From a virus (taxonomy: Duplodnaviria > Caudoviricetes), in the IMG/VR virus record IMGVR_UViG_3300031949_000121, positions 1 through 33,119 of that record: a stretch of DNA of 33,119 nt, one strand, 5' to 3'. The notes under the pieces were generated by a model. It was not told the DNA's origin, made no database searches, and was given only the letters and a program-made list of their open reading frames with translations. Shown in pieces: positions 495-22,148 of this stretch. Position 1 is the stretch's first letter. Each line of letters opens with the position of its first letter. Both the position numbers and the translations under genes were made by a program.

Positions 495-1505
495 TTACGT
501 CCCGATCGTCACCTGGACTACGGCCCGCGGCCGGAGACACAGCGCGAGGGGATTCGACTGCGTATGGATTTTCATCCAGCGTTGCAGCTCCGCGTCGATG
601 GCCTGCTTCGCATAGAGGGGCAGGCCCACGGTGTTGACCGTCTCGATGAAGTCGGCCGGCGCGAAGTAGGTCGAGAAGATGTTGGAGCCCTCGGGGAACA
701 CGTAGGCCTCGTCGTCGGCGATGAACGGCGTGCCGCCCGTCGAGCCGCGGTACTCCTCCCACGCCACGCCGGCGAACATGAACACGCGGGCGTTCGCCTG
801 CTGCTGCAGCAGCGACTGCGGGTCGGCGTAGCGCAGCGTCTGGACGACGCCGAGGTCCGAGCGCAGCGTGTCGAAGAACGTCTTGCCGCAGAAGGCGCGG
901 TAACTCGAGATGGGTTCGGCGCCCAGCTCGGCCTCGATCAGGCGCTGGATCGCGACGATCTCGGCGCGGAGCGCGTCGCCGTTGTCGGCCGCGTCGTTCG
1001 GGGTCACCGTCCCCGTCTGCTGCGAGACCCCGAACTCGGTGAACAGGTTGAGCATCGTCGAGCCGTCCGCGTCCAGGATCAGGCCCTTGATGGCGCCCGC
1101 GCGCAGGTGCTCGAGCGTCACCTCGTGCATCGCCCTCAGGTCGACCAGGCGCTCGTTGACGATGGCCTGCACGGCCTCGACCGCGTTCTCGCTGCCGAAG
1201 CTGCGCACGTTCTGGACCTCGTCGGCCAGGACCGTGCTCTCGCGCGCCAGGTGCGGGACCACGAAGCTGCGTGCCGTCCGCTTCGACGCCCCGATCGAGG
1301 ACGGCGGGGCACCGCGCGGGCTGCTCTGGATCAGGGAGAGCCGTCCGTCCTTCTCCTCGATCACGACGGTCGTCGTGGTGATACCGCGGTTGCGGAATAG
1401 GCCGAGCTGCTCGATCCGCATCGGCTTGTGAGGGGCCTTCAGGATCGCGTCGGTCAGAGACGTGACGCTGAAGATGTCGCTGCGGAAGACGTCCAACATG
1501 GGCAT
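495..1505 (-). CDS. Major capsid protein, lambda gpE family
   Basis: 336 aa; N-terminal FSVTSLTDAI, internal FAPADFIETVNTVGLP and C-terminal HTQSNPLALCLRP are typical of the lambda-E family; AGGAG SD upstream. Confidence 0.95.
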   Translation of the reverse strand: MPMLDVFRSDIFSVTSLTDAILKAPHKPMRIEQLGLFRNRGITTTTVVIEEKDGRLSLIQSSPRGAPPSSIGASKRTARSFVVPHLARESTVLADEVQNVRSFGSENAVEAVQAIVNERLVDLRAMHEVTLEHLRAGAIKGLILDADGSTMLNLFTEFGVSQQTGTVTPNDAADNGDALRAEIVAIQRLIEAELGAEPISSYRAFCGKTFFDTLRSDLGVVQTLRYADPQSLLQQQANARVFMFAGVAWEEYRGSTGGTPFIADDEAYVFPEGSNIFSTYFAPADFIETVNTVGLPLYAKQAIDAELQRWMKIHTQSNPLALCLRPRAVVQVTIGT

Positions 1506-3046: not shown

Positions 3047-4641
3047 GCCGCTTCCCCTTCCCGTGTCCGATCACCTTCAGCGGGATCACCATTGCCCTTG
3101 TCACCGCCATCGGGTCTCTTGTCGTTCCTCTCGTCCGGCGGTATTGGCGATGCAGCGGAAGGCGGCTCGGTGCGCCCGTCCGAGTCGTATTCGAGCCCGA
3201 GGGCGTCGGCCCTCTCGTTGTCCTCGGCCTGCTGCTGGTCGATCACCTGGGCGTCCTCGCCCTGCTCGCTCACGATCGCGGACCGCGAAGTGAAGCCGGA
3301 CCGGATCGCCGCGCGCGCCGCCTCGACATCCTGCACGGGGTGCAGGTACGGCCAGCCCTGCGGCATCCATTCGACATTCGCCCAGGGCTGCGGATCGGCG
3401 AGGTACTCCGCCGGGATCGGGAGGGCGCCGCTCAGGAACACGTGATCCATCCAGGCGCGCCACACCGGCCGGCAGAGCTGGAAGGCAACCGTCTGATGCT
3501 GCTCGGCCTGGATCTGACGGCGGAACTCGTGCAGGATCACCCGCACCGTACGGTCGTTCACGCGGCTCATGTCCCCGGTGAGGACCTCGTACGGGACGCC
3601 CGTAGCCGCGGCCACCGCGAAGAGTTGCTGCCGCATGTAGTCGCCGTACCCGCTGATGACGTCGGGCGGCTCGGAGAACTCGACTTCCTCGCCGGGCGCG
3701 AGCTCCTGGAAGATCCCAGGCTGCAGACCGAGCACGGGCCGGTTGCCCTCGGTCGCCACGGGCTCCTGGCCCGTGATCGGGATGAGGCTCGAGGAATCCG
3801 AGGCAGGGTGCTTGAGGAACGCGACGAACATGGCCGCGAGCTGCTGGCGGATCAGCGTCGCGTCGTCGAACTTGTCGAGCTCGCGGAGCCGGATCAGCGC
3901 CTGCGTCAGGTGGGGGATCCCGCGGAGCTGGCCCGGGCGCAGCGGCTTGTAGACGTGGAGCACGCGATCGGCCGGCACGCGCCGCAACTCGCTCGGATCC
4001 CAGTCCTGCCAGTCGCCCGGACGTGTCGCGAAGAAGTAGTAGGCGACCCTTCGGCCGATGCGGTCGAACTCGATCCCGGCCCGGATCTTGTTTCCGCCAC
4101 GCGCCAGGCCGTTGTGGCCGTGCGGGCACAGCTCCGGCTCTAGCACTTGGAGCTGCATCGGTACCGGCAGGCCATCCGTGGGCAGGCGGTCGCGGCGGCG
4201 GACGAACACCTCGCCGGCCTCGAGCCAGCAGCGGACGGCCTGCCCCTGCTGGCCGTACCAGTCGAGCGTGCCGTCGGCATCGCTGTAGTCCGTCCACAGC
4301 AGCCACAGCGCCTGGAGCTTCTGGCGGAACTCCTTGTCCTCAGCCAGCGAGAGAGGCTTCAGCCCGGTCCCGACGATGTTGTAGACGAGCTTGTCGATGA
4401 CGCCTTTCGCGTAGCCGTCGTTTCGCGTGGCGACACGCGAGCGGTCGCGCAGGACGTTGAGGCTGTCGAGGATGCTCTGATTCGGGCCGAGCGTGGGGGC
4501 CAGCCAGCCGTAGGCTCGGCGAGTCGCGGACGCCGCCTCGTACACCGCGGCCCGGGCGCTCGTCGCCACGATGCCCTTCGCTGGCTTGCGCGCTCGGCCG
4601 CGAAGGCGGGCTTGCGGAAAGAGGGCCTGTTGCTCGGCCAT
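3043..4641 (-). CDS. Portal protein, lambda family
   Basis: LRDRSR...RNDGYA, GIEFDRIGRRVAY, HVYKPLRPGQLRGIP, GVPYEVLTGDMS motifs; start set at ATG 4641 (TGATG overlap with the gpW stop) rather than 4713. Confidence 0.95.
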   Translation of the reverse strand: MAEQQALFPQARLRGRARKPAKGIVATSARAAVYEAASATRRAYGWLAPTLGPNQSILDSLNVLRDRSRVATRNDGYAKGVIDKLVYNIVGTGLKPLSLAEDKEFRQKLQALWLLWTDYSDADGTLDWYGQQGQAVRCWLEAGEVFVRRRDRLPTDGLPVPMQLQVLEPELCPHGHNGLARGGNKIRAGIEFDRIGRRVAYYFFATRPGDWQDWDPSELRRVPADRVLHVYKPLRPGQLRGIPHLTQALIRLRELDKFDDATLIRQQLAAMFVAFLKHPASDSSSLIPITGQEPVATEGNRPVLGLQPGIFQELAPGEEVEFSEPPDVISGYGDYMRQQLFAVAAATGVPYEVLTGDMSRVNDRTVRVILHEFRRQIQAEQHQTVAFQLCRPVWRAWMDHVFLSGALPIPAEYLADPQPWANVEWMPQGWPYLHPVQDVEAARAAIRSGFTSRSAIVSEQGEDAQVIDQQQAEDNERADALGLEYDSDGRTEPPSAASPIPPDERNDKRPDGGDKGNGDPAEGDRTREGEAA

Positions 4642-4847
4642 CAAAGGCCCTTCTCCGCGTAGCCGAGCGACTGCTTCGGCCTGCCGCCGAGCAACGCGAC
4701 CTTGCCGGCCCAATACTGCTGAGCCGTCATCAGCTCGTCCATCGAGCGGTAGGTGACCGCGCGGTCCGCGAACTGGACCGTGCGCTCCCCCTTGGCCATG
4801 GCCGCCTCGATCGCCCCGAGCGACGCCTGCGCGGTTGCGAGCGTCAT
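4641..4847 (-). CDS. Head-tail adaptor gpW-like protein
   Basis: 68 aa; AIEAAMAKGERTVQFADRAVTYRSMDEL is the typical gpW-like pattern; immediately before the portal gene. Confidence 0.88.
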   Translation of the reverse strand: MTLATAQASLGAIEAAMAKGERTVQFADRAVTYRSMDELMTAQQYWAGKVALLGGRPKQSLGYAEKGL

Positions 4848-5575
4848 CAGGCCACCGCCTCGGTCAGCTGCGTGTCGAGGTCACGCCACATCCTCGCGAG
4901 CGGGCGGACGTGCTGCGACGAGGCGATGCCGAAGACGGCCATGCGCAGCGCGCCCTTGACGTGGACGATCTTGGTGACAGCCGGGTTGAAGCGCTCCCAA
5001 CTGGTGTCCTCGGCGTTCCACTCCAGACACGGCAGCGTGGCCACCTTCAGGCCAAGCGCTGCGGCCAGGCCGCTTTCGAGGATTGCACCCAGAGAGGCCT
5101 GATTCTGGCCGCCGTACCGCTGGCGCCATGGGCCGCGCGCTTCTATGTCGCGCAGGAAGGCCGCGTCCCGCTCAGACCAGGCGTCCATGAAGCGCCGCGT
5201 CGCGGGGCCGACGCGCACGGCGACGACGCCGGCATTCAGCGGGAAGCGCGAGCGCGACGCGTCGCGCACGGTGTAGGCGAGATCGAACTCGCGCTCCCAT
5301 AGCGAGTCGAGCGGAGCCGTCACGAACGTGTCGGCGTCGACCAGCAGGATGCGCGCGCCGTCGTGCGCTCCTTCGACGAGGCGGCGCCACTCGCAGAGCT
5401 TGTGGTGATTCGCGGCATCGGCCTCGTTCCCGCTCGCGGCCCGCACGTGTGGGTCGATCCGGCGAACGTTCACGTCCCAGCCGGGACAGTGTCGCTGCGC
5501 CGATAGAGCCAGCGCTCGCGCGAGGCGCGGGTACTGACCGTCGCCGAAGAACACGGCCTCGAGCCGCGGGCGCAC
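4847..5575 (-). CDS. Glycosyltransferase-like protein (GT-A, nucleotide-diphospho-sugar transferase type)
   Basis: ILLVDADTFV (DxD), LNAGVVAV, NQASL, CLEWN and IVHVKG follow the GT8/GT34/GT77-like motif order; no clear SD before the GTG. Confidence 0.85.
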   Translation of the reverse strand: MRPRLEAVFFGDGQYPRLARALALSAQRHCPGWDVNVRRIDPHVRAASGNEADAANHHKLCEWRRLVEGAHDGARILLVDADTFVTAPLDSLWEREFDLAYTVRDASRSRFPLNAGVVAVRVGPATRRFMDAWSERDAAFLRDIEARGPWRQRYGGQNQASLGAILESGLAAALGLKVATLPCLEWNAEDTSWERFNPAVTKIVHVKGALRMAVFGIASSQHVRPLARMWRDLDTQLTEAVA

Positions 5576-5587
5576 GGCTCATGGTGA

Positions 5588-5722
5588 GGCCGGTTTTCGG
5601 CCCTGCCCGGAGCGTTATAGATGTGAGTTAGCTAGGTGAGCTGCTGTAAAGAAATGACTTGACAGCTCTTTAACGACTTCCGCTCGTACCGCACCCGGTT
5701 CACCGACCGCGAGCCTGTCAAG
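5588..5722 (-). promoter_or_regulatory. AT-enriched internal regulatory region with tandem 13-bp repeats (candidate head-operon promoter)
   Basis: Plus-strand TTATAGATGTGAG (5615-5627) and TTAGCTAGGTGAG (5628-5640); inverted pair CTTGACAG (5658-5665)/CTGTCAAG (5715-5722); hairpin GGCCG-5nt-CGGCC (5588-5602). Confidence 0.5.
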
Positions 5723-5945
5723 CGGGAACCTGCCGCCACTCTCGCTCCCGATCCAGCGTCGCGACCACCGCGAGCGGAACCCACAAGAGCAGCCGGGGGT
5801 GCTTCCCGCGCCGGGCCCGATGGCAGCGCCCGCGATACGGCTTCAGCAGCAGCCGGACCATCTGCGGCGAGACGTGCCAGCGTTCCGCGAGGTCCGCCAC
5901 GCACCACCAGTATTTCGTTGTGGTGGTGAGGGCGAGGTCTTTCAT
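5718..5945 (-). CDS. Small HTH DNA-binding protein (excisionase/HTH_17-like)
   Basis: 75 aa; WCVADLAERWHVSPQMVRLLL helix-turn-helix followed by a basic wing; ATGA overlap with the upstream GT gene. Confidence 0.7.
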   Translation of the reverse strand: MKDLALTTTTKYWWCVADLAERWHVSPQMVRLLLKPYRGRCHRARRGKHPRLLLWVPLAVVATLDREREWRQVPA

Positions 5946-6526
5946 GGAAGCTGCAATCTCACGGTGGGCATCCCCTCCCTGCCGCGACAGGGGCAGTCCT
6001 TCGCCCGGGGCGTTTCCTTCGGCAGCTCGTCGCCGTTCGCCCTGCGCCAGTGGTAGACGTAGAGCCCCTCGAGCAGGTAGACCCGGAGCCCGGCGTCGCG
6101 CAGCGCGAAGTGCATCCGGTGGTCCACGCAGAGCATGCCATCGACGAAGCCGCCGACTCCGCTCCAGGCCCTCTTCGAGATGACGATCACAACGCCGCCG
6201 AACCCCATCGTGTCCGTGATGTCGAGCAGGGTTCGCACCCTCGTCCGCTCTGCACCGTAGCGCCGGTGTCGCACGATGTCGTGGTTGTCCTTGTCCCCCA
6301 CCTGCTGCCAGCGCGGCGCGATCCGGTTCGTGACCGCGGTGAAGGCTCCGGCATCAGGCCGGAAGTCGATCGCCTCCCTCACCTGATGCCACCAACGACG
6401 GGTCGTCCACGCGGCGTCGTGATCGAGGAAGACGGCCCAGCCGTCCTCGGGTAGCAGCGCCATCGCCTCGTTGTAGGCCTTCCCGAGATTCAGGTCCTCC
6501 GCAAACGGCGTCATGCAGAGGATCAC
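5942..6526 (-). CDS. Glycosyltransferase family 2-like protein (paralog B)
   Basis: NLGKAYN, VFLDHD (DxD), SKRAW..VGGF, CVDH, YVYH motifs of GT2-like enzymes. Confidence 0.85.
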   Translation of the reverse strand: MILCMTPFAEDLNLGKAYNEAMALLPEDGWAVFLDHDAAWTTRRWWHQVREAIDFRPDAGAFTAVTNRIAPRWQQVGDKDNHDIVRHRRYGAERTRVRTLLDITDTMGFGGVVIVISKRAWSGVGGFVDGMLCVDHRMHFALRDAGLRVYLLEGLYVYHWRRANGDELPKETPRAKDCPCRGREGMPTVRLQLP

Positions 6527-7137
6527 GGCAGGCGCCTCCTCTTCGTCGGATCACCCTGCGGGAGGCCGCGGCAGGGGCAGCCCTGCTCGGTCCGCCGATC
6601 GCGCGCATGCGGGACCTCCTCCGGTGGAGGCTTCGGTCCTCCAGTCATGCCGCGCCAGTGGTAGACGTAGAGCCCCTCGATGAGCCAGACGCGTCGCCCC
6701 GCAGCCTTGAGCGCGTAATGGAACATGTGGTCCACGCAAAGGAGCCCATCGACGAAGCCGCCGGCATCGCACCACGCCCTCTTGGAGACCAGCATCAGCA
6801 CGCCACCCCATCCTTGCGTGTCCGTCACATCAAGCAGCGTGCGGGTCTTGAGGCGTGCCTCGCCCACTTTCCGATGCTGGCCAAGATCGTGGCGCGCCCG
6901 GGCGGCCTCTGGCGCCACCTGCCATCGGCTCGCCATGCGGTTGGTGATGGCAGTGAAGCACCCGTCCGGCTCCGCCGCCACGGCCGCTGCGAGCTGCCGG
7001 TTCCAGGCAGTGGTCGTGAACATCATGTCGTGGTCGAGGAAGCAGACCCAGTCCTCCGGCCCAACCAGGTTGAAGGTCTCGTTATAGGCGCGCCCCAGAT
7101 TCAGATCCTCCGCGTAGGGGACCGCCGTCAAGATCAC
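6523..7137 (-). CDS. Glycosyltransferase family 2-like protein (paralog A)
   Basis: Start moved to GTG 7137 (GTGA overlap; MILTAVPYAEDLNLGRAYN aligns with the paralog B N-terminus); CFLDHD, SKRAWCDAGGF, CVDH, YVYH. Confidence 0.85.
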   Translation of the reverse strand: MILTAVPYAEDLNLGRAYNETFNLVGPEDWVCFLDHDMMFTTTAWNRQLAAAVAAEPDGCFTAITNRMASRWQVAPEAARARHDLGQHRKVGEARLKTRTLLDVTDTQGWGGVLMLVSKRAWCDAGGFVDGLLCVDHMFHYALKAAGRRVWLIEGLYVYHWRGMTGGPKPPPEEVPHARDRRTEQGCPCRGLPQGDPTKRRRLP

Positions 7138-7646
7138 CGGACGGCCTCCACCCTGAAGTCCCGGCCGCTGGCGTACGTGTGGTATTGCTGCGGAAGCACG
7201 AGGATGGAGGACCACGGGGCCGACTCGCGCAGGAGGGCCACCAGTGTCTCTGGGTCGTATCCCCAGCTGTGAAGATATGAAGGATCGCGGTGTGCGGGGT
7301 CTCCGTAAATGGGCCACATGATCCGCTCGAAGAGGTGCCCCGACGTCGGGACCTTGTCGAGCCCAGCCAGAAGGCGCGCTGCGACCGCGATGTCGGGCTG
7401 CTCCAGCACCAGCGTCCCGCCCGGGCGCAGAACGTCGTGGATCTCCCCCAGCAGCGGACCCGCGTCCCAGCGCCAGAAGTGCTCGATGCCGTGGATCAGC
7501 TCGATGAGGTCCCACTTCTTGTCCCTCACCGCTGCCGGCAGCGGCGGGATCTCAGCGAGGATGTCCGGGGAATGCGCAGGGTTACAGTCGAGCCGCAGGA
7601 ATCCGGCGGGCCGCGTGGGGCCGGAGCAGAGCAGGAGCTTCCTCAC
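7134..7646 (-). CDS. Class I SAM-dependent methyltransferase (glycan-locus type)
   Basis: Start GTG 7646 (GTGA overlap); LLLCSG...GFLRLD, WDLIELIHGIEHF, LLGEIHDVLRPGGTLVLEQPD; no DPPY/NPPY or PC motif of DNA methyltransferases. Confidence 0.85.
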   Translation of the reverse strand: MRKLLLCSGPTRPAGFLRLDCNPAHSPDILAEIPPLPAAVRDKKWDLIELIHGIEHFWRWDAGPLLGEIHDVLRPGGTLVLEQPDIAVAARLLAGLDKVPTSGHLFERIMWPIYGDPAHRDPSYLHSWGYDPETLVALLRESAPWSSILVLPQQYHTYASGRDFRVEAVR

Positions 7647-8341
7647 GGATGGACGTGCCGCGTGAAGTGCTGGTTGGTCGAGAGATCTACGTCGAAGCCG
7701 ACCGGCTCGATCCCGTGCTCCATGAGGAGCGGCGAGAGCGCGGCTTGATCGAGGATCGAGAAGCGGAGGACGCAGTTCCACCACGCGTCCAGGAACGCGT
7801 GCGTGCGCGAAGCGTTGGCCATGAGCCAGAGCCCGCCCGCCCAGAGCTTCAGCGCCTCCAGGTCATGGATCCGACTGAAGAACTCGCGCTCGCGCTCCAG
7901 CGCCTCCGCGGAGTACCGCCCCGCTAGGTAAGGATTCCCCAGCTCGATCTGCCGCAGAACGTAGCCGTACTCCTGCGCCACCGTTTGGCGGTCGGGGTGC
8001 GGGACGAATACGGCGCGTGATCCATCAGGGGCCGCGAACCCTGACCACTCGGTCAGAAACTCGAGAGAGTGGAACTCGAAGCTCGCGTCAGCCCACGCTA
8101 GCCACGGGTAACCGCGCACCTCGGGGAGGTGGTGGGCCTGGCACTTGAAAAACTTGGCCTTGAGCCTGGGCTCGCTCGCTGGGTACGGAGGCACCAGGAT
8201 CCTGGTCCACGTGGAGGCAGCTGAGCCGAGGCTGGGCACGTCGGTGTAGTAGAGCGCGTCGATGCCCGGGTGCGGCGGCAGCGCAAAGAGGGGATCGATG
8301 CCGCCCATGTTCGCCGTCACGAGCGCGATGCTGGTCCCCAT
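7643..8341 (-). CDS. Glycosyltransferase-like protein, DUF616 (TOD1/MUCI70-like)
   Basis: IALVTANMGGID, LYYTD, AKFFKCQAH, WADAS, HPDRQTV..E, WWNCV...DQAAL match the DUF616 motif order. Confidence 0.8.
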   Translation of the reverse strand: MGTSIALVTANMGGIDPLFALPPHPGIDALYYTDVPSLGSAASTWTRILVPPYPASEPRLKAKFFKCQAHHLPEVRGYPWLAWADASFEFHSLEFLTEWSGFAAPDGSRAVFVPHPDRQTVAQEYGYVLRQIELGNPYLAGRYSAEALEREREFFSRIHDLEALKLWAGGLWLMANASRTHAFLDAWWNCVLRFSILDQAALSPLLMEHGIEPVGFDVDLSTNQHFTRHVHP

Positions 8342-10221
8342 CAGCCGTTCCAGTTCCGCGTGCGCGGAGTGCGAGGGGCCGGCTGCTGCTGTTGAGCCTG
8401 GGCGGGCGCCGCGAGTTGATCCCGCATCTGCCTCACCAGCCTGTCATGCGCGCCGCCGCTGATGATGTCGAACGCCGCGCGCGCGTAGATCATGGTGTCC
8501 CATGCCTCGTTCCGCGCGCCCTCCTGCTTCACCCAGCGCTCGTATGCGACGCCGTTCCGGTAGTACCGCTCGCGGTGCTCGACCGTGAGCTGGACAAAGT
8601 AGGGCTCGCCGAGGAACGAGCCGAAATGGATCGTGCCGGGCCCGCCGGGCGGGAGGGCTAGGGCGGCCGCCAGCTCCGCCTTGCCGGCGTCTACGTTGAG
8701 GCGCTGCAGCTGCACGGGGCGGGCGTTACGCCCGTGCGTCCGTGGGCTGATCTTCATCACGAGCGGCTCGGCCGTACCGTGGGACTCGCCCTTCGCTGCG
8801 AAAATCCGCCGATGCTGCTGCGCGACGACGAATGAATAGACCTCGTCCGCGAGGAAACCGCTGTCGACGCAGGTGCCGTGAATGCCGATCCTCCGACCGG
8901 AAGTGTGCCCGTAGGTCTCAGCGAGCGCTGCCGACAGCTGATCCCACGTCTCGCGGCGCCGCGGGTCACCCGGTACGCTCTTCCAGTCCACGACCCAGCG
9001 CTCGAGATGCTCGCCCCAGGCCACGACGTGCACCTCGATGCGGTCGGCCTGGACGTCGACGCCGGCCGTGAGTACCGTCGCCGGCTCCGGCACATCCACG
9101 TCGGTCCCGTAGTCCTCGCGCCGCCCAAGCAGGACATGAGGCTCCACCCGCGGCGAGTCGCGATCCTCCCAGCCTTCCGCGAGCGAGGTGTTGATGAAGA
9201 CTCGCAGCGACTCGCGGCCCCGCGTATGCGCCGACAGGAATTTCCCCACGAGCTCGGGCAGGCTCACCCAGGGCGAGAGCATGGCAGGCACGTGGAAGCC
9301 GATAAGGCCGGGCTCCTGGGACTCGGCGGTCGCTCGCCATTCGCCGCCGGCGACGAGCGCTTGACGTCCCGACTCCAGAATCCTCCGGTCGCACCCGCCG
9401 TGCTCCGAGTTGGGGCACTCGATCCTGGCGCTCGAGGCGTCGCGCTCGTCGAAGGCGACACGCATGTGTTCCGGGTCGTTCCAGGTGACCCAGTCCTCGC
9501 GACCACACCGCGGGCAGGCGACAAAGTAACGGCGCTGGTCGCTTGCCTGGTAGAGGCTATCGATGCGCCCGCCCTTCAAGGTCGGGGTGCTCACGAAGAT
9601 CGCGAGCCCGTCATGGAATGTCGTGACGCGGTTGACGAGTAGTTCGGCGGGGTCGCCTTCTTCCCCCACGACCGGAGGGAAACGGTCCACGTCGTCGCCG
9701 ATCGCCATGCGCACGGCCCAGCGTGCGAAGGTGTTCGGCGTGTTGGCGCCGCCCAGGGCGAGGAAGCCGCCCGGGAACATCTTCAGCGCGAGCGTCGATT
9801 CCGGCCGGCCGTCCGTCCCGGGCATCCGCTTGTCCTGCACCACGGCCCGCAGCGCCGGCGTCGTCCGAATCATGTCGGAGAGCCGCTCCTTGCTGAACGC
9901 CTCCGCGGCCAGCGCCGTCGGGTGCACCAGCAGCATCGGCGCCGGCTGGTGCTCGATGTAATACCCGAGGATGTTGTTGAGCGACTCAGAGCCGCCGCTC
10001 TGATGGCACTTCATCAGCGCGATCTTCCGCACCCCGGGCTCGTGGACCGCGTCCATGATTCCCGCGAGATATGGGGCTGTCGCGGTGCGCCACCGCCCAC
10101 CACGCGCAGCCGAGGCCTCCGGCAGGACGCGCTCCTGATCCGCCCACTCGCTGACGGTGAGGACGGGCGGCGGCGTGCATGCGAGCGACCACTCGGGAAT
10201 CGGCGACGGAGCGAAGCTCAC
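8341..10221 (-). CDS. terL: Terminase large subunit, lambda gpA family
   Basis: LTVSEWAD, MKCHQSGGSE (Walker A-like), IGDDVDRF, STPT, DQRRYFVACPRC, LTAGVDVQ, RNEAWDTMIYA. Confidence 0.97.
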   Translation of the reverse strand: MSFAPSPIPEWSLACTPPPVLTVSEWADQERVLPEASAARGGRWRTATAPYLAGIMDAVHEPGVRKIALMKCHQSGGSESLNNILGYYIEHQPAPMLLVHPTALAAEAFSKERLSDMIRTTPALRAVVQDKRMPGTDGRPESTLALKMFPGGFLALGGANTPNTFARWAVRMAIGDDVDRFPPVVGEEGDPAELLVNRVTTFHDGLAIFVSTPTLKGGRIDSLYQASDQRRYFVACPRCGREDWVTWNDPEHMRVAFDERDASSARIECPNSEHGGCDRRILESGRQALVAGGEWRATAESQEPGLIGFHVPAMLSPWVSLPELVGKFLSAHTRGRESLRVFINTSLAEGWEDRDSPRVEPHVLLGRREDYGTDVDVPEPATVLTAGVDVQADRIEVHVVAWGEHLERWVVDWKSVPGDPRRRETWDQLSAALAETYGHTSGRRIGIHGTCVDSGFLADEVYSFVVAQQHRRIFAAKGESHGTAEPLVMKISPRTHGRNARPVQLQRLNVDAGKAELAAALALPPGGPGTIHFGSFLGEPYFVQLTVEHRERYYRNGVAYERWVKQEGARNEAWDTMIYARAAFDIISGGAHDRLVRQMRDQLAAPAQAQQQQPAPRTPRTRNWNG

Positions 10222-10947: not shown

Positions 10948-11361
10948 CTAGCCATCGCCAAGGTCGTCCGAGATTCGGAGCACGTGGTTTGCACCGTTCG
11001 GGAACGTGGTGCGGACGCCGGCTGCATCCACGACTTCGCACTCGAAGACGTGCTCGAGGTCGCCCTCTTCGATCACCGGTAGCGAGGGGATGAATCCGCC
11101 CACCGTGTACGGGCTGGCCTTTGTGCCGGCGCCTGCACTACCCACATCCCAATCGCTCTCGATGGGATCGTAAATAGCCCAGCCGTCCGTGCCCGGCGGA
11201 GTCTCGATCTCGAAGTCGCGCTGAAGATAGATGCCGTTCGAGAGCTTGATGTTCAGCTTCCGGACGGTGCTTTCTTCCAGGTCCTTGGGTGTACCATCCG
11301 ACTCCATTAGCTGCGCCCGGAGGCCCTTCGTATCTCCGCGTTTCAGCGTCCAGACACTCAT
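10948..11361 (-). CDS. BppU-N/DUF2479-like virion adaptor protein
   Basis: LKRGDT...L...DG.PKDL...TV, GWAIY...DWD and FECEV...G..TTFP..G...LRI.DDL pattern of small Ig-like fibre or baseplate adaptors. Confidence 0.6.
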   Translation of the reverse strand: MSVWTLKRGDTKGLRAQLMESDGTPKDLEESTVRKLNIKLSNGIYLQRDFEIETPPGTDGWAIYDPIESDWDVGSAGAGTKASPYTVGGFIPSLPVIEEGDLEHVFECEVVDAAGVRTTFPNGANHVLRISDDLGDG

Positions 11362-13931
11362 CAGCTCACCCCCGTGTCGGAGCCATCAATCACCAGGCGC
11401 GTCGCCGATGCAGCGATGTCAAGACGCGTGGCCGATGCGGCAAGGATGCTACGCGTGGACTGACCCAGCTCGGCGCGGATCGGCGCGTAGACGAAGGAGA
11501 GGGCGGCAGCCGTGGACGATCCGGCGGCGGCGCCTGACGCGGCCGCCCTGGGAGCTCCTGCGGCCAGGGCCGTAGCAGATCCAGATGCGATGCCGGAACC
11601 GATGGACGTGCTAGCCCCGACGCCGTTAAGCATGGCGGCGCCGGACGAACTCGCCGCGGAAGACGCGGTCGAAATTCCGACGGCGGCCGCAGTCGCCGTG
11701 CCTGCGGCGGCTGCGTTCGATGCCCCTCCGCTGGCGCCGCTCGCCGTAGAAACACCAGCGGAACTCGCGATAGTCTCCGCGACCGAAGACCCGGCGGCGG
11801 CGGCGGCGCCCTGGCCAGCGGCGGCGCCAGCGCTTGCGCCAAAACTTGAGCCGACAGCAGGGGCCACCGCGGTACCGGGGGCCGAGCCGACGGCGGAACC
11901 GGTCGCGGCGCCAATTGCGGCGGCCGACGCCAGGCCGGCAGAGGACCCTACCGAAGCGCCCTCGCTGAGCGCCGATGCGGTCGCGGCGCCCGCAGCCTGC
12001 GCGGCGGACGCGGCGGACGCGGCGCCCGCGGCCTGCGCGATAGCAGAGCCGGGAGCGACCCCTGACGCAGCCGCCGCGCTCGCCCCGGCAGCGGACGCGG
12101 TAGCGACGGACGCCGACGCGCCCGAAACCTGCGCGGTCGTGGCGCCGACACCGGCCGCGGTACCCTGACCCGGAGAGGCCGCATCTGCCGCGGCCACGCT
12201 CCCTGCGGTCCCCTCCACGGCAGCGGAGCCAGCCGAACTCGCGGCGGCCTGGGACTCCGAACCTCCACCGGCGGAAACCGTCCCTTGGCCCGCGGAGAAC
12301 GCGTCCGCCTCCGCGGAACTGATTCCGACCGCCGCGGCGGACGCGGCGCCGGATGCTGCACCCTCCGCTGGTGAGGTCCCTACCCCGAGGCCTGCGCCGT
12401 CAACCGTCGCCGTGCCCGCGGCGGCCGCCCTCCCCGCGGCGAACGAGATGCCAGTTGCGAGCGCGTCTGCCTGGCCTGCTGTGGTGGCCGCTGCGGACGC
12501 GACGCCGGCGCCAGCGCCCGTAACAGCGGAGACGCCATCGGAACTCGCACCGGCGGCCTTGGTTGCGGATCCCGACGCCTGGACGGTCGCAGCGCCGACA
12601 GAGGCACCACTGGCGCCAGCGGTTGCGCCGCCCGCGGCGGACGCCAGAACACTTCCGGCGGCGACCGCGAGGGACAGGGCGAACGAGGCACCGATGCTGG
12701 CTACGGTCGCGGCGCCCGCGGACGCGGCGACGCCGTCCGTCGTTCCAGCGGCGAGTTCCATCGAGAGCGCGACCAGGATGTGGTAGCTCGCGCTGTAGTT
12801 CGGCGCTACGTCGAAGTCCTCGGCGATGTCGAAGTCGATGTTCGCCGTGCCGGAGGACAGCGAGGCGATGCCGAACAGCACGTTAGCTAGCTTGTCGGTG
12901 GAGGCGTGGTTCTTCGCCCCACCGGCGCGCCCAAACCCCGCCGTGGGCCAGTCCGTCTCGGATATCTGAATGCGCGCGTACTGGCTCTTCGCGCCATCCC
13001 CGAGCGCGTCCGTCAAGGAGAAGCCGAAGATCAGGTGATCTCCGGTCGCCGTGACCGGATGCGCGTTGTGCGTCGCACACTCCTGGAAGGTATCTATAAC
13101 CGAATGCGTGATCACGCCCGTGCTCAGGACCGCGCTCACGTCCTTGAACGCCTGAAGCCGCAGCGCGAACACCTTGGTGTCAGTCACGTCGTGCGTCGCG
13201 GAGCTCGTGTGGAACCGGCTCCGCGCCGTCGTGTCGGACGCGACGTTCTCGGCGAGGTACGCGGTGATCAGCGGCCTCGACTCGAAGGTGTCCTCGCCCT
13301 GGTACTGAAGCTCACCACGCGAGCCGCCCACGTCGAGGTCTTGAAACAGGTCCGCCGTCACGCTGTCGATCAGCCACTGAGCGAAGCCCAGCACCAGCCA
13401 GTCGTCGCCACCCGAGGGCAACGTGACCGAGGCTCCGGTCGTGCCGTAGGTCGTGGGCGCGTCGCCGCTGTGAGTCGCTTCCGCGTACCGGAAGTCACCC
13501 GCAGCGAGGTCCCCGAGCTTCAGGACGACGATGCTGAAGTCGTCGTACCGAGCCGTACCGGAGCTTCCGTTCGCCAGCGAGACCGAGAAGTACAAGTTCT
13601 CATTTGTGACCAGCGTGTGCCGCTCGAACCAGCCGTAGGGGTGAAGGCCCTGCGAGTCAGTCGAACCCGCCTCGCCGCCTGCGAGGGAGTCGCTCCAGTC
13701 GGCGCGCCCGGCGTACGTACTCCCGCGGCCGACTTGGAAGCTCATGTTGGTGGACGTGGTGCTACCGCCGAGCCCAACGCGGACGAGGATCAGGACATCG
13801 TCCCCGGCCGCGAAGCCAGCCGTTGTCAGGTCTGTCCAGGGAACGGTGTAGTTGGTCTGCTCAACCGGGGTGGTCGAAGTCGTAGTCCGCCCCGTGGCGT
13901 CGACCTTGCTGTAGTGAGTGATCGCGGCCAA
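11361..13931 (-). CDS. Fibre-like protein with a beta-rich N-terminal region and about 21 Ala/Gly/Ser-rich 20-aa repeats
   Basis: 856 aa open frame; TTG start with GAGGGG SD; repeats counted by eye; flanked by two virion-type genes. Confidence 0.7.
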   Translation of the reverse strand: MAAITHYSKVDATGRTTTSTTPVEQTNYTVPWTDLTTAGFAAGDDVLILVRVGLGGSTTSTNMSFQVGRGSTYAGRADWSDSLAGGEAGSTDSQGLHPYGWFERHTLVTNENLYFSVSLANGSSGTARYDDFSIVVLKLGDLAAGDFRYAEATHSGDAPTTYGTTGASVTLPSGGDDWLVLGFAQWLIDSVTADLFQDLDVGGSRGELQYQGEDTFESRPLITAYLAENVASDTTARSRFHTSSATHDVTDTKVFALRLQAFKDVSAVLSTGVITHSVIDTFQECATHNAHPVTATGDHLIFGFSLTDALGDGAKSQYARIQISETDWPTAGFGRAGGAKNHASTDKLANVLFGIASLSSGTANIDFDIAEDFDVAPNYSASYHILVALSMELAAGTTDGVAASAGAATVASIGASFALSLAVAAGSVLASAAGGATAGASGASVGAATVQASGSATKAAGASSDGVSAVTGAGAGVASAAATTAGQADALATGISFAAGRAAAAGTATVDGAGLGVGTSPAEGAASGAASAAAVGISSAEADAFSAGQGTVSAGGGSESQAAASSAGSAAVEGTAGSVAAADAASPGQGTAAGVGATTAQVSGASASVATASAAGASAAAASGVAPGSAIAQAAGAASAASAAQAAGAATASALSEGASVGSSAGLASAAAIGAATGSAVGSAPGTAVAPAVGSSFGASAGAAAGQGAAAAAGSSVAETIASSAGVSTASGASGGASNAAAAGTATAAAVGISTASSAASSSGAAMLNGVGASTSIGSGIASGSATALAAGAPRAAASGAAAGSSTAAALSFVYAPIRAELGQSTRSILAASATRLDIAASATRLVIDGSDTGVS
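11491..12734 (-). repeat. Coding degenerate tandem repeat, 60 bp/20 aa period
   Basis: Units such as GVAASAGAATVASIGASFAL, ADAASPGQGTAAGVGATTAQ and SAASSSGAAMLNGVGASTSI, usually with Gly at positions 7 and 15. Confidence 0.85.
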
Positions 13932-13950
13932 ATTGACCCCTCAGATCGAA

Positions 13951-14001
13951 GGGCGGGCCAACGAGAACTGGCCCGCCCCCCTCCCGTCTGCCTGCGGGAG
14001 G
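13951..14001 (-). terminator. Two tandem intergenic hairpins (attenuator or mRNA-stabilising element)
   Basis: GGGCGGGCCA-8nt-TGGCCCGCCC (13951-13978) and CCTCCCG-8nt-CGGGAGG (13980-14001); only TT follows on the minus strand, so termination would be weak. Confidence 0.55.
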
Positions 14002-14013
14002 CGCGGCGCCGGC

Positions 14014-14442
14014 TTAGTCTTCGGTGACCGTGCTCGCCGTGGTGAGCCGTGGCGTGACGCCGTCGCCGCACACGATGTTCGGCGTGATCGTGCCGGAGTA
14101 CAGGATCTTGCCCGCACCGCTCGCGAGCGTTCCGACGGCGAAGTGCGTGGCCGTTCCGCTTCCGCCCGTCCCGGCGGGGAAATCGATGTTCGCCGCCGGG
14201 CTCACCGACGCGCCGCTCACCGTCCAGCCGCCCGAAGTCCGCGCCACGGCCACACGGGCATAGCTCGTGTACGCGATCTCATTCGATTGCTGGTTGCCTG
14301 CCTCGCCCGGATCCGCCGTGTGGAGGCTGACGTACAGGTTGGTCAACGGACTGGTGGCGTCGTTGTCGGCGAGGTCGGCGATGCCCACCGCGTTGAAGAT
14401 CAGCTGAAGCAGGTCGTTCTCGAAGACGTTCCCCTTACTCAT
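14014..14442 (-). CDS. Small phage fibre/structural subunit protein
   Basis: Start ATG 14442 with GGAGGGAG SD; LYVSLHTADPGEAG...EIAYTSYARVAV...IDFP...TATHFAV...ILYSG is a recognisable small virion protein family often labelled phage tail fibre protein. Confidence 0.75.
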   Translation of the reverse strand: MSKGNVFENDLLQLIFNAVGIADLADNDATSPLTNLYVSLHTADPGEAGNQQSNEIAYTSYARVAVARTSGGWTVSGASVSPAANIDFPAGTGGSGTATHFAVGTLASGAGKILYSGTITPNIVCGDGVTPRLTTASTVTED

Positions 14443-14701: not shown

Positions 14702-14889
14702 CCCTTCGGTGCCGTCGGCGTCGCGTCCTTCGGGCTGCGCAACCAGAAGCCGAGCGCCGCGGTCAGGAACGTCGCGCCCAGCGCCGGGAGCATCCCCATC
14801 AGCTCGGGACACGCCCCTGATAGCTGCTGCATGATCGCGGCGAAGCCGGCCGCGGCGGCGCCGAACGCTGTGACCTTGAGTCCCCTCAC
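14698..14889 (-). CDS. Small membrane protein, 2 predicted TM segments (holin candidate)
   Basis: 63 aa; two hydrophobic stretches and a short basic tail; coupled at both ends. Confidence 0.6.
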   Translation of the reverse strand: MRGLKVTAFGAAAAGFAAIMQQLSGACPELMGMLPALGATFLTAALGFWLRSPKDATPTAPKG

Positions 14890-15455
14890 GGCTCACCTCC
14901 TGTGGGCATCGCCACCGCGACCCCGATCCGCGTGAATCCACCCTCGCCCGTCACGTGGTCCGCCACCGCGGACAGCGCGCGCCAGAGCGGGACCTGCGCC
15001 ACCACGATCCCGCGCACACCGTCCCCTGCAGCCTTGTGCCGGCCGGCCATGACGTACACGTAGCCGGCGCCGCGGCCCAGCCGCACGCCCGCGCCCCAGG
15101 TCCTCGGCGAGGACGAGTCGCCCTCGAGCCGCGCGGTGATCCCGTACACCGCCGCGATCCCCAGGCCAGGCCGCACGTCGTAGTACGCCCCGCCGTGAGC
15201 CTCGACTGACGAGTAGCCGTCGAGCCCGGCGTCGAGGTCCAGCTCCTCGCCAGGCAGCGCGGAGGCGTCCACGCGGCCCACCACGTGCAGCCCCCTGGCG
15301 ACGTGCACGTTCGCGGCGACGCGCCCGCCCCACACCTGCTGCGTGTCACCGGACTGCGTGAGCAGCACGCGCCAGGCCCAGGCCCCAGCCTGCGTCTCCT
15401 GAGTGCTGGCGCTGGCGGCCAGCAGGACAAACGCGGCCGAGAGCCAAGTCCTCAT
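14886..15455 (-). CDS. Secreted protein, putative outer-membrane beta-barrel
   Basis: Start ATG 15455 (ATGA overlap); signal peptide MRTWLSAAFVLLAASA followed by about 10 amphipathic Gly/aromatic-rich strands. Confidence 0.6.
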   Translation of the reverse strand: MRTWLSAAFVLLAASASTQETQAGAWAWRVLLTQSGDTQQVWGGRVAANVHVARGLHVVGRVDASALPGEELDLDAGLDGYSSVEAHGGAYYDVRPGLGIAAVYGITARLEGDSSSPRTWGAGVRLGRGAGYVYVMAGRHKAAGDGVRGIVVAQVPLWRALSAVADHVTGEGGFTRIGVAVAMPTGGEP

Positions 15456-17640: not shown

Positions 17641-18510
17641 TCACCACGTCCTCTCGTTGCAGCCTTGCGTGCCTGCGAACGGCTTCCCCGTCGCTGGGTT
17701 GACGAGCGTCGGCGGCGGGCACGCGAGCATCTTCGTCGGCTGCCCAGGAATACGGCCCTCGAACTGCACACGGACCGAGTAGCCGTCATGCACCACGGGC
17801 GCCGGACCGGCGACTCCGAGGCGCTTGAAATCCGGGGGCGGCGTCGGGCAGCCGTTCGGCAGCTCGCATTCGCGGCGCACGTCCGTCGTGTACCAGCAGC
17901 ACGAGCTCTCGCCCGTAACGGGATCGTTCTCCTGCCGTTCGGTGCGCATCGTCCCGCCGAACCAGAGGACATCACCGGCCTGGACGTTGTGCCCCTTCTC
18001 CGCCCAGTCGAAGCAGCCAGGTAGCCCACTCTTGGCGTTGCGGCCGTGGCCCACGCACACGTCCTTGCCCTTGCGGATCACGCGTTCCCAGTAGATGCCT
18101 GCGTTCCACACGTGCGGGCAGCGCGTGAGGCACACGCCCCACGGACACGTGGTCTCACCGTGCAGCGGAGTCGTGGGCGCGAAGCAGCCGCCGGGCGGGC
18201 CGGGCGCCGGCGTCGGCGGAGGGATGCTCGGCTCCGGCGTCGGAGGCGCAGTTGGCGCCGGCGAGGGCAGGGTGGTCGGAGGAGGATCGGACGGTGGCGG
18301 GCTCGGCGGTGGCAAATCCGGCGGTGGAGTCGGGACCGGTGAACCAGGCGTGGACGGGCCCGGCTCCGGGGTCGGCACCGGCGAGGACGGAGGGCACGGG
18401 ATCACCGCGCCCGTGCTGAGATCGAAGCAGATCGCCGGCAGCGGGATCGGGCGGTCGCACGCGGCCGTGATGAGCAGGGCGAGGACGACGAGCGGCAGCG
18501 GGCGGCTCAC
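17641..18510 (-). CDS. Lipoprotein with Pro-rich stalk and Cys-rich C-terminal domain
   Basis: Start GTG 18510 (GTGA overlap); MSRPLPLVVLALLITAA-C lipobox; about 70 aa Pro/Thr/Ser linker; 12 Cys in the C-terminal domain. Confidence 0.7.
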   Translation of the reverse strand: MSRPLPLVVLALLITAACDRPIPLPAICFDLSTGAVIPCPPSSPVPTPEPGPSTPGSPVPTPPPDLPPPSPPPSDPPPTTLPSPAPTAPPTPEPSIPPPTPAPGPPGGCFAPTTPLHGETTCPWGVCLTRCPHVWNAGIYWERVIRKGKDVCVGHGRNAKSGLPGCFDWAEKGHNVQAGDVLWFGGTMRTERQENDPVTGESSCCWYTTDVRRECELPNGCPTPPPDFKRLGVAGPAPVVHDGYSVRVQFEGRIPGQPTKMLACPPPTLVNPATGKPFAGTQGCNERTW

Positions 18511-18710: not shown

Positions 18711-19210
18711 GCCGCTTTCGAAGCCTCCCAGATCGTTTCCAACACGCGCAGGCGCCAGCCGCGAAGGAACTGCTGCAGGCCGGGCCGGCTCTGCACCAGG
18801 GCTTCGTAGCGATCGAGCCGGCGTTCCATAAACAGCGCGACGGCGCGAGCGCCCGAGTGCCGCGCCGCAGTCAGCGTCTCTGGCCCGAGCACGCCGTCCA
18901 CGTCCACGCGCAGCGCCTCCTGCAGCATGCGCACGGCAGCGCTCACGCCCTGGTTGACTGCGCTGTCGAAGAGGCAGAGGGCCAGCGCAGCCGGCAGCTC
19001 ATCGCCGCGAATCGCCGTCCAGTAGGAGACGCGGTAGATTTCCCGCGCCTGCTCCGGCGTCAGGTTGATTACGTCCACGTCCGGGTGCGCACGCTGGGAG
19101 ATCCCGTACTTGGTGATCTGGCCGGGGTCTGAGCGATTGACGGAGAGCCCACCCTCGTGCTTGAGCACTGAAGCGACGGCGGCCTCGAAGGCGGAAGTCG
19201 GGAGAGTCAC
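18707..19210 (-). CDS. Endolysin, glycoside hydrolase family 108 with peptidoglycan-binding region
   Basis: VLKHEGG...DPG..TKYGIS, IY..SYW, LFDSAVNQG, LQEAL.V.VDGVLGPETL, FLRGW; start GTG 19210. Confidence 0.93.
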   Translation of the reverse strand: MTLPTSAFEAAVASVLKHEGGLSVNRSDPGQITKYGISQRAHPDVDVINLTPEQAREIYRVSYWTAIRGDELPAALALCLFDSAVNQGVSAAVRMLQEALRVDVDGVLGPETLTAARHSGARAVALFMERRLDRYEALVQSRPGLQQFLRGWRLRVLETIWEASKAA

Positions 19211-19581
19211 GCAGCGATCTCCCGGCCTGCGTTCCGCGACGAGAGGATCTCGTCTACCTTCTCGGCCTTCACCACCAGGAAGGGGCGAAGCGCAAGAAGG
19301 AAGCTCTGGGCTGTGGTGTTCGTGACGACGAACTGGTAGCAGTCCCTGAGCGCCCGCTTGTGGGCGCCAGCTCGGTAGCTCAAGCCGACCCAGCCGTAGC
19401 CGAAGATCTCCTTGACCTTGTCTAAACAGCGTCGGTCGGTGTTGTGGATCCTGGCGACCACTCGGAGGTATCGCGCACCATTCTTCGTCGCTCTGTATGG
19501 CTGAATCCGGCAGTCGCCTTCGCCGTCGAACAGACCCGCGACGTAGGCGATCTCCGTCGAGTCCGACCGGCGCGTCGCCAT
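19207..19581 (-). CDS. Single-motif LAGLIDADG homing endonuclease-like protein, free-standing
   Basis: IAYVAGLFDGEG motif, I.NTD...L..VKEIFG.G and FL..LRPFLVVK C-terminal pattern; 124 aa. Confidence 0.88.
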   Translation of the reverse strand: MATRRSDSTEIAYVAGLFDGEGDCRIQPYRATKNGARYLRVVARIHNTDRRCLDKVKEIFGYGWVGLSYRAGAHKRALRDCYQFVVTNTTAQSFLLALRPFLVVKAEKVDEILSSRNAGREIAA

Positions 19582-19621
19582 TTCGCCCCCCCGCATCACG
19601 CGCGGCCCCCCTCCAGAACGC

Positions 19622-20411: not shown

Positions 20412-22148
20412 TCACACTGCGCCCTGGAACAGCTGATCCGATGCTCGCACCTCACCGCGGCCGACGTCGACGACGAGCTGTCGCGCGCGCAGCCGTTGGA
20501 GATACGTGTCCCGACTCGAGCGCTGGTACCCAGTGGCCTCGTCCAGGCGCCCGCGCTCAATGGCGCGCGGGTACGCGTCGGTCAGCGCGGAGAGGACGCG
20601 CCGCTCTCCCTCGGGGAGCTTGTGCATCCAGTAGTGGCGCAGCGCGTCGCCACTCGGCAGCGGTTCGAAGTCCGGGCCCAGCGTCGCCAAGCCCGCATCG
20701 GTGGCGAAGATCAGCTCGCCCCGGAACTCGGCCAGCCCCGCCGCTCGCAGCCGCTGCAGATACGTATCGCGGCTCGAGCGCTTATAGCCGGTCAGCACGG
20801 TGATCTGCTCCCGGGTGACGCCGCCTACGTGCTGGGCGATCGCCACCAGGACGCGGCGCTCGCCGGCGCCGAGGGTGCCCCCTCCCGCCTCGCCACGCGG
20901 CACCGGGCGCGTTTCCGCGGCGCGCACGGGGCTCGCGGACCGGGGCGGCGCGGCCGGGGGTTGGGCCGGCGTCGCCAGCCTCGCGCGGATAGCTGCCGAG
21001 ATCTCCGCGGCAAGGTTCCGGATCTCCCGCTCCGTGCCCGTGAAGGCCTGGGCCCATTTCCCGAGCTGGACCATGGCGCGGTCGATCCGACCCGCGGCGG
21101 CCTCGAGACGCTTCACCTGGACGTCCTTCAGCGCCGGGACCTCGACGCGCCTCTCATTCGCTGGCGCCGCAGCGGGCTTCGCCTTCAGATCGCGCTCGAG
21201 CTCGGCAATCCGCCGGCGCAGCTCGCGGGGATCCTCGGCCTTCGCCCGCTGGATCGTCGCCGCCATCTTGGCGCGCAGGCGCTCGAGGTCGACGACCGCC
21301 AGCGCCTTTGGCTCCGTGCGCTGCTCTCCGTGTTTCGGAGTCGCCGAGGAATCGAACGTCTCGCGCGGAAGGATCTGCACCCGCTTCAGCCCAATCGGGT
21401 CGTCCTCTGGGAACTCCGGGGCCCAGACGAAAGCCTCGCCGGTCTTCAGCGTCGCGAGCTCGCCGAGAATCTCCTCGCTCTGCTGGCGGTACTTGATCCA
21501 TTGGCGCACCGCTTCGACGTCCTGCGGGCCGATCGTCCGGTGCACGACAAGGATCTCTGACTGCGTCGTGATGTCCTTCGAGAGGGACGCGGGTCTCTGG
21601 GTGATCGCGGTGCCGCCGATCCCCGACGAGCGGCCCAACTTCCAGAGCCGCTTGAAGGCGCCGAGCATGTTCTCGGCCTTCTCTCCTCGCGGCGGCGACT
21701 GCGGCGCAAGCTCGTGCGCTTCCTCGAGCACTAGGTGGAGGACGCCGCCGCTCCATTTCTGGTAGAGCGTCTGCGCGAAGTCCACCATGAACTGGCTGCG
21801 CGCCACGCCGGAGAGGTGCTTGCACGAGAGCACCATCGATACCCGGTGCTCGCAGAGCACGTCTGCGATCATGGCGCCGCCGTGAACCTCGAGAGGCAGG
21901 TCAGCGTGGCGGCCGCCGAAGACATACACGTCGTGGCCCGCGCCGTTCCCGTCGCGCGAAGCCTTCAGGCCCCACCAAGTGTCGGCGATGTCCAGCACGA
22001 CGACCGGCACCTTGGCATTGAGGAGCTGCTCGACCAGGCGCGCGGCCGTCGTGCTCTTGCCGCTCCCCCGCTTCCCCACGACCAGGAACGTCTGTGTCGC
22101 GGCGTCCACGGGAAGCGCGAGCGACGACGACAGGCGCAACCGCTTCAT
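20412..22148 (-). CDS. HerA/FtsK-superfamily ATPase (DUF87-like) with two C-terminal winged-helix repeats
   Basis: GKRGSGKS Walker A, LVLEEAH Walker B, GRSSG arginine finger, ITQRP; start ATG 22148 (ATGA overlap). Confidence 0.88.
   Translation of the reverse strand: MKRLRLSSSLALPVDAATQTFLVVGKRGSGKSTTAARLVEQLLNAKVPVVVLDIADTWWGLKASRDGNGAGHDVYVFGGRHADLPLEVHGGAMIADVLCEHRVSMVLSCKHLSGVARSQFMVDFAQTLYQKWSGGVLHLVLEEAHELAPQSPPRGEKAENMLGAFKRLWKLGRSSGIGGTAITQRPASLSKDITTQSEILVVHRTIGPQDVEAVRQWIKYRQQSEEILGELATLKTGEAFVWAPEFPEDDPIGLKRVQILPRETFDSSATPKHGEQRTEPKALAVVDLERLRAKMAATIQRAKAEDPRELRRRIAELERDLKAKPAAAPANERRVEVPALKDVQVKRLEAAAGRIDRAMVQLGKWAQAFTGTEREIRNLAAEISAAIRARLATPAQPPAAPPRSASPVRAAETRPVPRGEAGGGTLGAGERRVLVAIAQHVGGVTREQITVLTGYKRSSRDTYLQRLRAAGLAEFRGELIFATDAGLATLGPDFEPLPSGDALRHYWMHKLPEGERRVLSALTDAYPRAIERGRLDEATGYQRSSRDTYLQRLRARQLVVDVGRGEVRASDQLFQGAV

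Follow-up and report, generated by a model that had tools for sequence, protein, structure and literature searches.

A glycosyltransferase cassette in the head operon of a lambda-like phage and its predicted role in O-glycosylation of the virion

Phage glycosylation systems and the terL-gpW cassette

The virion of the cluster F mycobacteriophage Che8 is O-glycosylated, with capsid and tail tube both ending in GS (capsid KTGS, tube SDGS) and the last Ser presumably itself the acceptor, and its set of glycosyltransferase (GT) genes, gp108-110, lies at the right end of the genome. In the cluster O mycobacteriophage Corndog, a methyltransferase (MTase) gene of the O-methyltransferase type and three GT genes (gp35-38 in the phage record) stand between portal and protease, a layout within the head operon already described in the available portion of PMC4351075, and the accessible parts of PMC11600133 and PMC12363180 report that these genes glycosylate capsid and tail tube. 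Likewise, excerpts of PMC12619734 place mycobacteriophage glycans at the C-termini of both proteins. Here we describe a cassette of GT and MTase-like genes between the large terminase gene (terL) and gpW in the virus record IMGVR_UViG_3300031949_000121, whose full 33,119 nt form the window of this study. From genes and sequences we infer, with a probability of about 0.72, that this cassette O-glycosylates the C-termini of capsid and tail tube.

The record (33 kb, 68% GC, coding on the minus strand) is contained in soil metagenome runs and carries the lambda-like head genes terS, gpA terminase, gpW, portal, Clp protease, gpD and gpE; it is a fragment with its tail genes off the contig, and the tail-tube gene therefore falls outside the window. 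As a preliminary description of this DNA had it, six open reading frames on the minus strand fill the terL-gpW interval (GT-A, MTase-like, GT2a, GT2b, HTH and GT-F), and these are given here with their flanks and the capsid gene:

7643..8341, minus strand: GT-A, DUF616/TOD1_MUCI70-like glycosyltransferase, GT-A fold, 232 aa (PF04765 matches of relatives; AlphaFold2 (AF2)/Foldseek)
7134..7646, minus strand: class I S-adenosylmethionine (SAM) MTase-like protein, 170 aa (PF13489 8.6e-5, below cut-off)
6523..7137, minus strand: GT2a, GT2-like glycosyltransferase with DHD motif, 204 aa (phrog_14179 1e-16)
5942..6526, minus strand: GT2b, paralog of GT2a (53% identical), 194 aa (phrog_14179 match)
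5718..5945, minus strand: small helix-turn-helix (HTH)-like protein, 75 aa (homologs; HTH label from a by-eye alignment)
4847..5575, minus strand: GT-F, PF03407 (GT77)/GT8-like glycosyltransferase, 242 aa (PF03407 3e-4)
8341..10221, minus strand: large terminase of lambda gpA type, upstream flank (PF05876 2e-64, PF20454 8e-79)
4641..4847, minus strand: gpW-like head-tail adaptor, downstream flank (phrog_2545 4.5e-15)
495..1505, minus strand: major capsid protein gpE with C-terminus TIGT, predicted acceptor (PF03864; C-terminal comparison)

The genes overlap as first described, through TGATG at the terL/GT-A and GT-F/gpW junctions and GTGA/ATGA elsewhere, with one gap of 142 bp after the HTH gene. 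Cassette GC at third codon positions is 0.86 compared with 0.90 in head and early genes, and codon use is near that of the head genes. The maximum 19-residue hydropathy of the six proteins is 1.44, with no evident transmembrane (TM) helix. Among the window proteins scanned, all from this 33-kb fragment, there was no match to GtrA/B, a flippase, ThyS or TET, in line with the earlier statement that the window shows no membrane partners or nucleotide-modification enzymes, and sugar-synthesis genes were likewise not found in the window. When terL was used alone as query, no close relative was detected among viral contigs. A read-depth drop at ~4290-7960 in one run (X1, 65% of the run read) was set aside; the run contains all sampled words.

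Like Corndog, the window couples an MTase-like gene and several soluble GTs within the head operon, and its capsid ends in a small residue plus Ser/Thr (TIGT in gpE; Gly/Asp-Ser in Corndog, with capsid LVGS and tube KGDS). However, the enzymes belong to other families, the slot is terL-gpW and not portal-protease, the head is of lambda type and the host is probably diderm, not mycobacterial. The cassette gave no match to the essential Corndog gp38, the GT2 profile reached gp37 only at E 0.006, and cassette profiles A1-A4, compared as sequence profiles only with Che8 gp110 and Corndog gp38, gave a best E of 0.55 (gp110) at Z=1000. Che8 shares a phage-encoded GT set with the window and differs in the place of these genes and in the lack of orthology. 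Soluble GTs with an MTase-like gene in a virion operon and a hydroxyl C-terminus are thus both found here and an ortholog of the essential GT is not, so that the cassette, by analogy, appears to work like the Corndog system without being a member of it. The preliminary description had presented the locus as extending virion glycosylation to a lambda-type head; that reading is supported, but a head-operon MTase with three GTs had already been described for Corndog.

In the Cellulophaga phage phi18:1 (Helsingorvirus), gp41 contains a GT-A-like domain (E 2.6e-9 with a close-relative profile) and a GT2-like domain (E 1.5e-20), and gp40-gp41 resemble the cassette in that these domains adjoin an MTase, here between portal and protease. 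Unlike the window, phi18:1 has an HK97-type head, no GT-F match and another MTase family. Its capsid, gp49, ends SGT and its tube, gp55, VGT; no GT-free cultured relative was found for comparison of the capsid.

C-terminal endings and linkage to head genes

Among lambda-type capsids, an ending of small residue plus Ser/Thr was present in 24 of 27 from GT-bearing phages and 1 of 43 from GT-free phages, where GT-free means no profile match in a stretch showing terL and portal, where the 'small residue' rule was picked after the endings were seen, and where counting related sequences overstates independence. Protease-capsid fusions ended in Ser/Thr in 19/19 GT-bearing cases and 2/8 others, as did tail tubes in 23/24 of a GT-bearing set that has no matched GT-free counterpart. 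Other head proteins kept close to the background of 173/1203 (14%), ending so in gpD 1/28, portal 4/25, gpW 2/25 and terL 1/18. On a capsid tree (FastTree, last six residues removed) six changes account for the GT label, and at about four places (L393/L394, L453, L216/L254 and L228/L223) the ending goes along with it; L393 and L394, which have no GT and whose capsids end TKS, are nested among GT phages.

A GT2 profile detected 160 loci, 123 of them distinct, with a single, distant locus from 185,579 GTDB genomes. On a quick tree, a clade of 50 rows with support 85 takes in both window GT2 paralogs and spans 46 other loci, 30 of which show a head gene. A synteny survey, as the preliminary description had proposed, found a head gene within 6.5 kb in 23 of the 25 clade loci of at least 5 kb (exceptions L003 and L113), and the cassette in at least three slots: terL-gpW in 7, gpW-portal in 10 and before terS in 4. 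Upstream partners alternate between GT-A with this MTase and a GT2/MTase/deacetylase fusion with another MTase and GT, while GT-F is present in 23/23 long head loci of the clade. A separate GT-F scan, in which the best 80 of 113 matches were taken, added 46 distinct loci; in 35 of these GT-F lay no more than 3.5 kb from a lambda-type portal, and 5 of the remaining 11 had portal, terminase, scaffold or capsid neighbours. None of the 46 has the GT2 family, the partners there being other MTases, GT2, GT4 or GT32-like enzymes. Of the cassette genes GT-F is the constant one, and its partners are variable.

We also called genes in 12 relative genomes and scanned 290 of 367 cluster representatives, covering all of ~135 aa or more. 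Whether the replication module is lambdoid or PolA-type, the cassette stays beside the head genes, and it therefore tracks the head and not the replication module. This linkage and a C-terminal signature that follows GT presence, with endings like those of Che8 and Corndog, make virion glycosylation the reading with most support, in agreement with what had been proposed from the window.

These genomes also bear on whether the enzymes might instead glycosylate phage DNA just before or during packaging, a role that we consider improbable. Late expression, which the preliminary description had used against DNA modification, is a weak argument, as Mu Mom modifies DNA late. The cassette adjoins the terminase, and the available part of Pyle et al. 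(bioRxiv 2023.12.21.572611) describes DNA-modifying, 5mYOX/ThyS-linked GT clusters that likewise contain phage GT-A enzymes and sometimes lie near terminase genes. Unlike those clusters, the cassette has no oxygenase or ThyS partner that we found and no TAGT match, and no ThyS or TET match was detected in the representatives scanned; a search with PF12851 (Tet_JBP) gave 0/30 matches, its control being blank as well. The sole genome with TAGT domains (G013) keeps two of them in its PolA replication region, separate from the head cassette, and the accessible text of PMC8594841 reports phi92-like phages, which have a distant homolog, to be sensitive to restriction-modification. Of 201 GT-F proteins, 8 do have a ribbon-helix-helix (RHH)-like DNA-binding tail, and the domain is fused in 6 of the 13 loci where it occurs, but an RHH-like gene also stands alone before gpW in the GT-free L393 and L394, and we read the tail as a fusion with the neighbouring regulator. 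Two further genomes, G006 and G007, have a C5 MTase. As a separate observation, one of the two TAGT domains in the G013 region (L182:560-5560) is fused to DNA polymerase A, and radical SAM genes lie close by; this is a DNA hypermodification system in its own right.

In a terL-selected control of 65 loci with a portal in view, at least two, each a close relative, had cassette families in the terL-portal interval, and a Pfam run that covered 17 of 53 unlabelled genes (120 aa or longer) from these intervals gave MTases and no GT. Among capsid-selected loci of at least 54% identity GT-F was present in 5 and absent from 5, with a GT in 1/31 of those more distant. The cassette is accessory, because close capsid relatives can be without GT-F. 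Its absence from half of the nearest capsid relatives and the insertion of homing endonucleases into this interval (L001) would fit neutral or small-molecule cargo in a tolerant intergenic slot; this is very improbable given intact conserved catalytic motifs, 1668 GT-F clusters at 50% identity and the correlated C-termini.

Several points weigh against virion glycosylation, starting with the limits stated above for the C-terminal counts, the derivation of the reading from genes and sequences, the lack of orthology with Che8 gp110 or Corndog gp38 and the RHH-like tails. Plain terminal Ser/Thr is common in lambda-type capsids with or without the enzymes (25/27 GT-bearing, 30/43 GT-free). The signature has exceptions in both directions, with L237, L029 and L320 carrying a GT without the ending and L443 the ending without a GT, and the signature of phi18:1 comes with no GT-F match, which makes the priming enzyme uncertain. 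Mu-like, podovirus and HK97-type phages have more distant GT2 homologs in their structural modules, and T4-like and phi92-like phages have them beside replication genes; the capsid ending is absent from the Mu-like (0/3) and podovirus (0/4) groups with such homologs, and likewise from the Bas61 capsid. In the Mu-like myoviruses L039, L042, L050 and L119, Ser/Thr ends were observed on decoration and neck proteins, not on capsid or tube (2/2, 4/4 and 3/4).

The target may also be another virion protein, chiefly the Ala/Gly/Ser-rich fibre protein at 11361-13931, modified at many internal serines. Ser and Thr together make up 24% of its central 420 residues, which carry almost no charge, and its gene adjoins a Gp80 fibre gene just upstream of terS. 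Set against this, the protein has no homolog in cassette-bearing loci, and a chain-like fibre rope wrapped by Gp80-like dimers, as the available part of PMC13730344 describes, can account for the composition, so that we regard the fibre as an improbable target.

Cassette enzymes and their possible action

Family labels came from relatives and folds, the matches of the window's own cassette proteins being weak, and the enzyme identities given earlier therefore stood for the GTs through folds and relatives' matches and less well for the MTase-like protein, whose motif I is degenerate. The window GT-A has no Pfam match of its own; PF04765 matches 4 of 10 aligned, distant GT-A relatives (best 1e-9), and the motifs WxDA, HPxR and DQ are common to GT-A and DUF616/TOD1_MUCI70 (PF04765). 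Its AF2 model (pLDDT 92) was compared using Foldseek, a fold check that had been suggested beforehand, and the best matches were GT6 enzymes (E 7e-7), the fold likeness coming from Foldseek alone. The MTase-like protein is 64-71% identical across 6 relatives and has LLLCxGP in 7/7 close members in place of an intact glycine-rich motif I; its likely role is that of a sugar O-methyltransferase. Another phage group (L279-L301) also has distant MTase homologs, in clusters rich in GTs that lie between its capsid-region genes and its tail genes, usually before the same partner gene.

In GT2a, residues D35, H36 and D37 are invariant (62 sequences), and its AlphaFold model (pLDDT 95) has a GT-A fold, with a GT of Cellulophaga phi18:2 as best viral match (TM 0.72). 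A protein-priming role for GT2a, raised by ppGalNAc-T2 among the top Foldseek matches, was dropped on tied VIA-align Z scores of 10.1 to 9.2. Both paralog types are also retained in L002 and L081, and in L001 a NUMOD3-type homing endonuclease gene lies between the two (L001:10651-11493). GT-F scored 21.3 bits with PF03407, just under the cut-off of 22, and 17 of 27 members match; D80-x-D82 (DxD motif) is invariant, its Atlas neighbours bear PF03407, and by profile the best solved relative was Gat1 (6mw5; 1.8e-5), an enzyme that extends the Skp1 glycan. No match to the cassette was found in NCBIfam, nor to GT-A and GT-F by tblastn among 50,697 phage records, and searches of the PDB with cassette profiles A1, A3 and A4 gave nothing significant. 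Catalytic motifs of the cassette GTs are conserved and intact. Fusions are seen of GT-A with GT2 domains (phi18:1 gp41) and, in relatives, of GT-F with MTases or DUF616, which supports one shared pathway for the cassette enzymes.

In the proposed mechanism, the soluble enzymes would be made late, together with the head proteins, and would use host nucleotide sugars as donors. GT-F, as the constant member the best candidate for the first step, may act first or on the first sugar of a chain that would begin at the last Ser/Thr of the major capsid protein and, judging from relatives, of the tail tube. GT2a, GT2b and GT-A might then lengthen the chain and the MTase-like protein cap it by methylation, giving a short, probably methylated O-glycan, and swaps of partner genes could alter this glycan in a manner akin to a particle serotype. 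More tentatively, GT-F may represent an undescribed class of soluble O-glycosyltransferase that reads a free C-terminal tag of small residue plus Ser/Thr, with the tag evolved on three unrelated virion proteins in a large lambda-like group of diderm hosts, partner enzymes swapped to change the glycan coat, and the whole independent of the mycobacteriophage system.

The enzyme types are also those of cell-surface glycan loci, and it is conceivable, though unlikely, that they alter glycans of the host envelope (O-antigen, capsule or lipid-linked precursors) at the cytoplasmic face, late or in the lysogen, and so block superinfection or re-adsorption. Some relatives are temperate, with integrases in 3 of 12 genomes (G003, G004 and G017), and the available part of PMC11946311 suggests without test a host-envelope role for phi18:1 gp41, among published proposals of lipopolysaccharide, DNA or regulatory functions. 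Against such a role, the genes form a coupled part of the late operon, the front of the cassette has no separate promoter, no flippase or GtrA/B was seen among the window proteins scanned, and the C-terminal signature of capsid and tube would be left unexplained. GtrABC serotype conversion, with GtrA, GtrB and a multi-TM transferase in the membrane, likewise employs phage-encoded GTs, but the cassette lacks membrane components and sits inside the late operon. Solubility itself, previously taken as an argument against serotype conversion, is a weak one, since many O-antigen GTs are soluble and O-antigen synthesis involves soluble GTs and O-methyltransferases.

The regulatory module before gpW, other features and significance

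The HTH gene, initially listed among the genes of the cassette, belongs with the head operon: 7 other distinct phages have a homolog, in every case immediately upstream of gpW or ~3 kb or less away, and the protein has no significant Pfam match. The 142-bp gap beside it contains one further feature:

5588..5664, minus strand: conserved non-coding element with TGTCAAG, two 13-bp tandem repeats and a CGAAAACCGGCC-like box (recurs in relatives)

In L001, L013, L025, L239 and L262 this element lies about 95-105 nt ahead of gpW, whereas in the window it stands ahead of GT-F. TGTCAAG occurs no more than 420 nt from gpW in 8 of 68 loci, with 0.012 expected per 450 nt, and no sigma-70 consensus was matched within 5588-5664. 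In other relatives, including the two without GTs named above (L393 and L394), the RHH-like gene fills the same slot before gpW. The HTH gene is probably a head-operon regulator, possibly a late activator, and not a glycan enzyme, the element is probably a late promoter or HTH site, and gene and gap together are probably the head operon's own regulatory module. We infer that the window GT-F is transcribed together with gpW, portal and capsid.

Elsewhere in the window, the stretch 10948-14442 upstream of terS encodes a Gp80-like fibre subunit (PF23140), an 856-aa protein and a 137-aa protein, probably a chain-like fibre module of rope and dimers; the 856-aa protein is Ala/Gly/Ser-rich with a nearly uncharged centre and ends in Ser. 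After a holin-like gene, 14886-15455 and 17641-18510 encode a beta-strand-rich protein with a signal peptide and a Pro-rich predicted lipoprotein, neither with a Pfam match. A GH108 endolysin, adjoined by a LAGLIDADG homing endonuclease-like gene (19207-19599), together with the by-eye lipoprotein and the secreted beta-rich protein of the lysis region, suggests a diderm host. A HerA/DUF87-like ATPase is encoded at 20412-22148, and likewise shortly upstream of the terminase genes in L210, L216 and G015. The 73-kb record G001 (L163 and L165) has two complete head modules, HK97-type and lambda-type, and possibly represents two phages in one contig.

In the literature searched, with most subscription journals outside the search and sources seen in part, virion glycosylation has been demonstrated for mycobacteriophages only, and neither glycosylated particles from a Gram-negative host nor a rule on C-terminal tags turned up. 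The layout known from Corndog lowers the novelty of the present cassette. Our findings suggest that lambda-type phages from soil and water evolved the trait anew, using other enzyme families, and that the C-terminal Ser/Thr tag allows it to be recognised in genomes; phi18:1, a cultured phage of a Gram-negative host, offers a direct test case. If this is true, GT-F could serve as a compact tool for tag-directed protein glycosylation, and the question would arise of what a glycan coat does for phages outside animal hosts, where it may bear on stability, particle adsorption, proteases and grazers.

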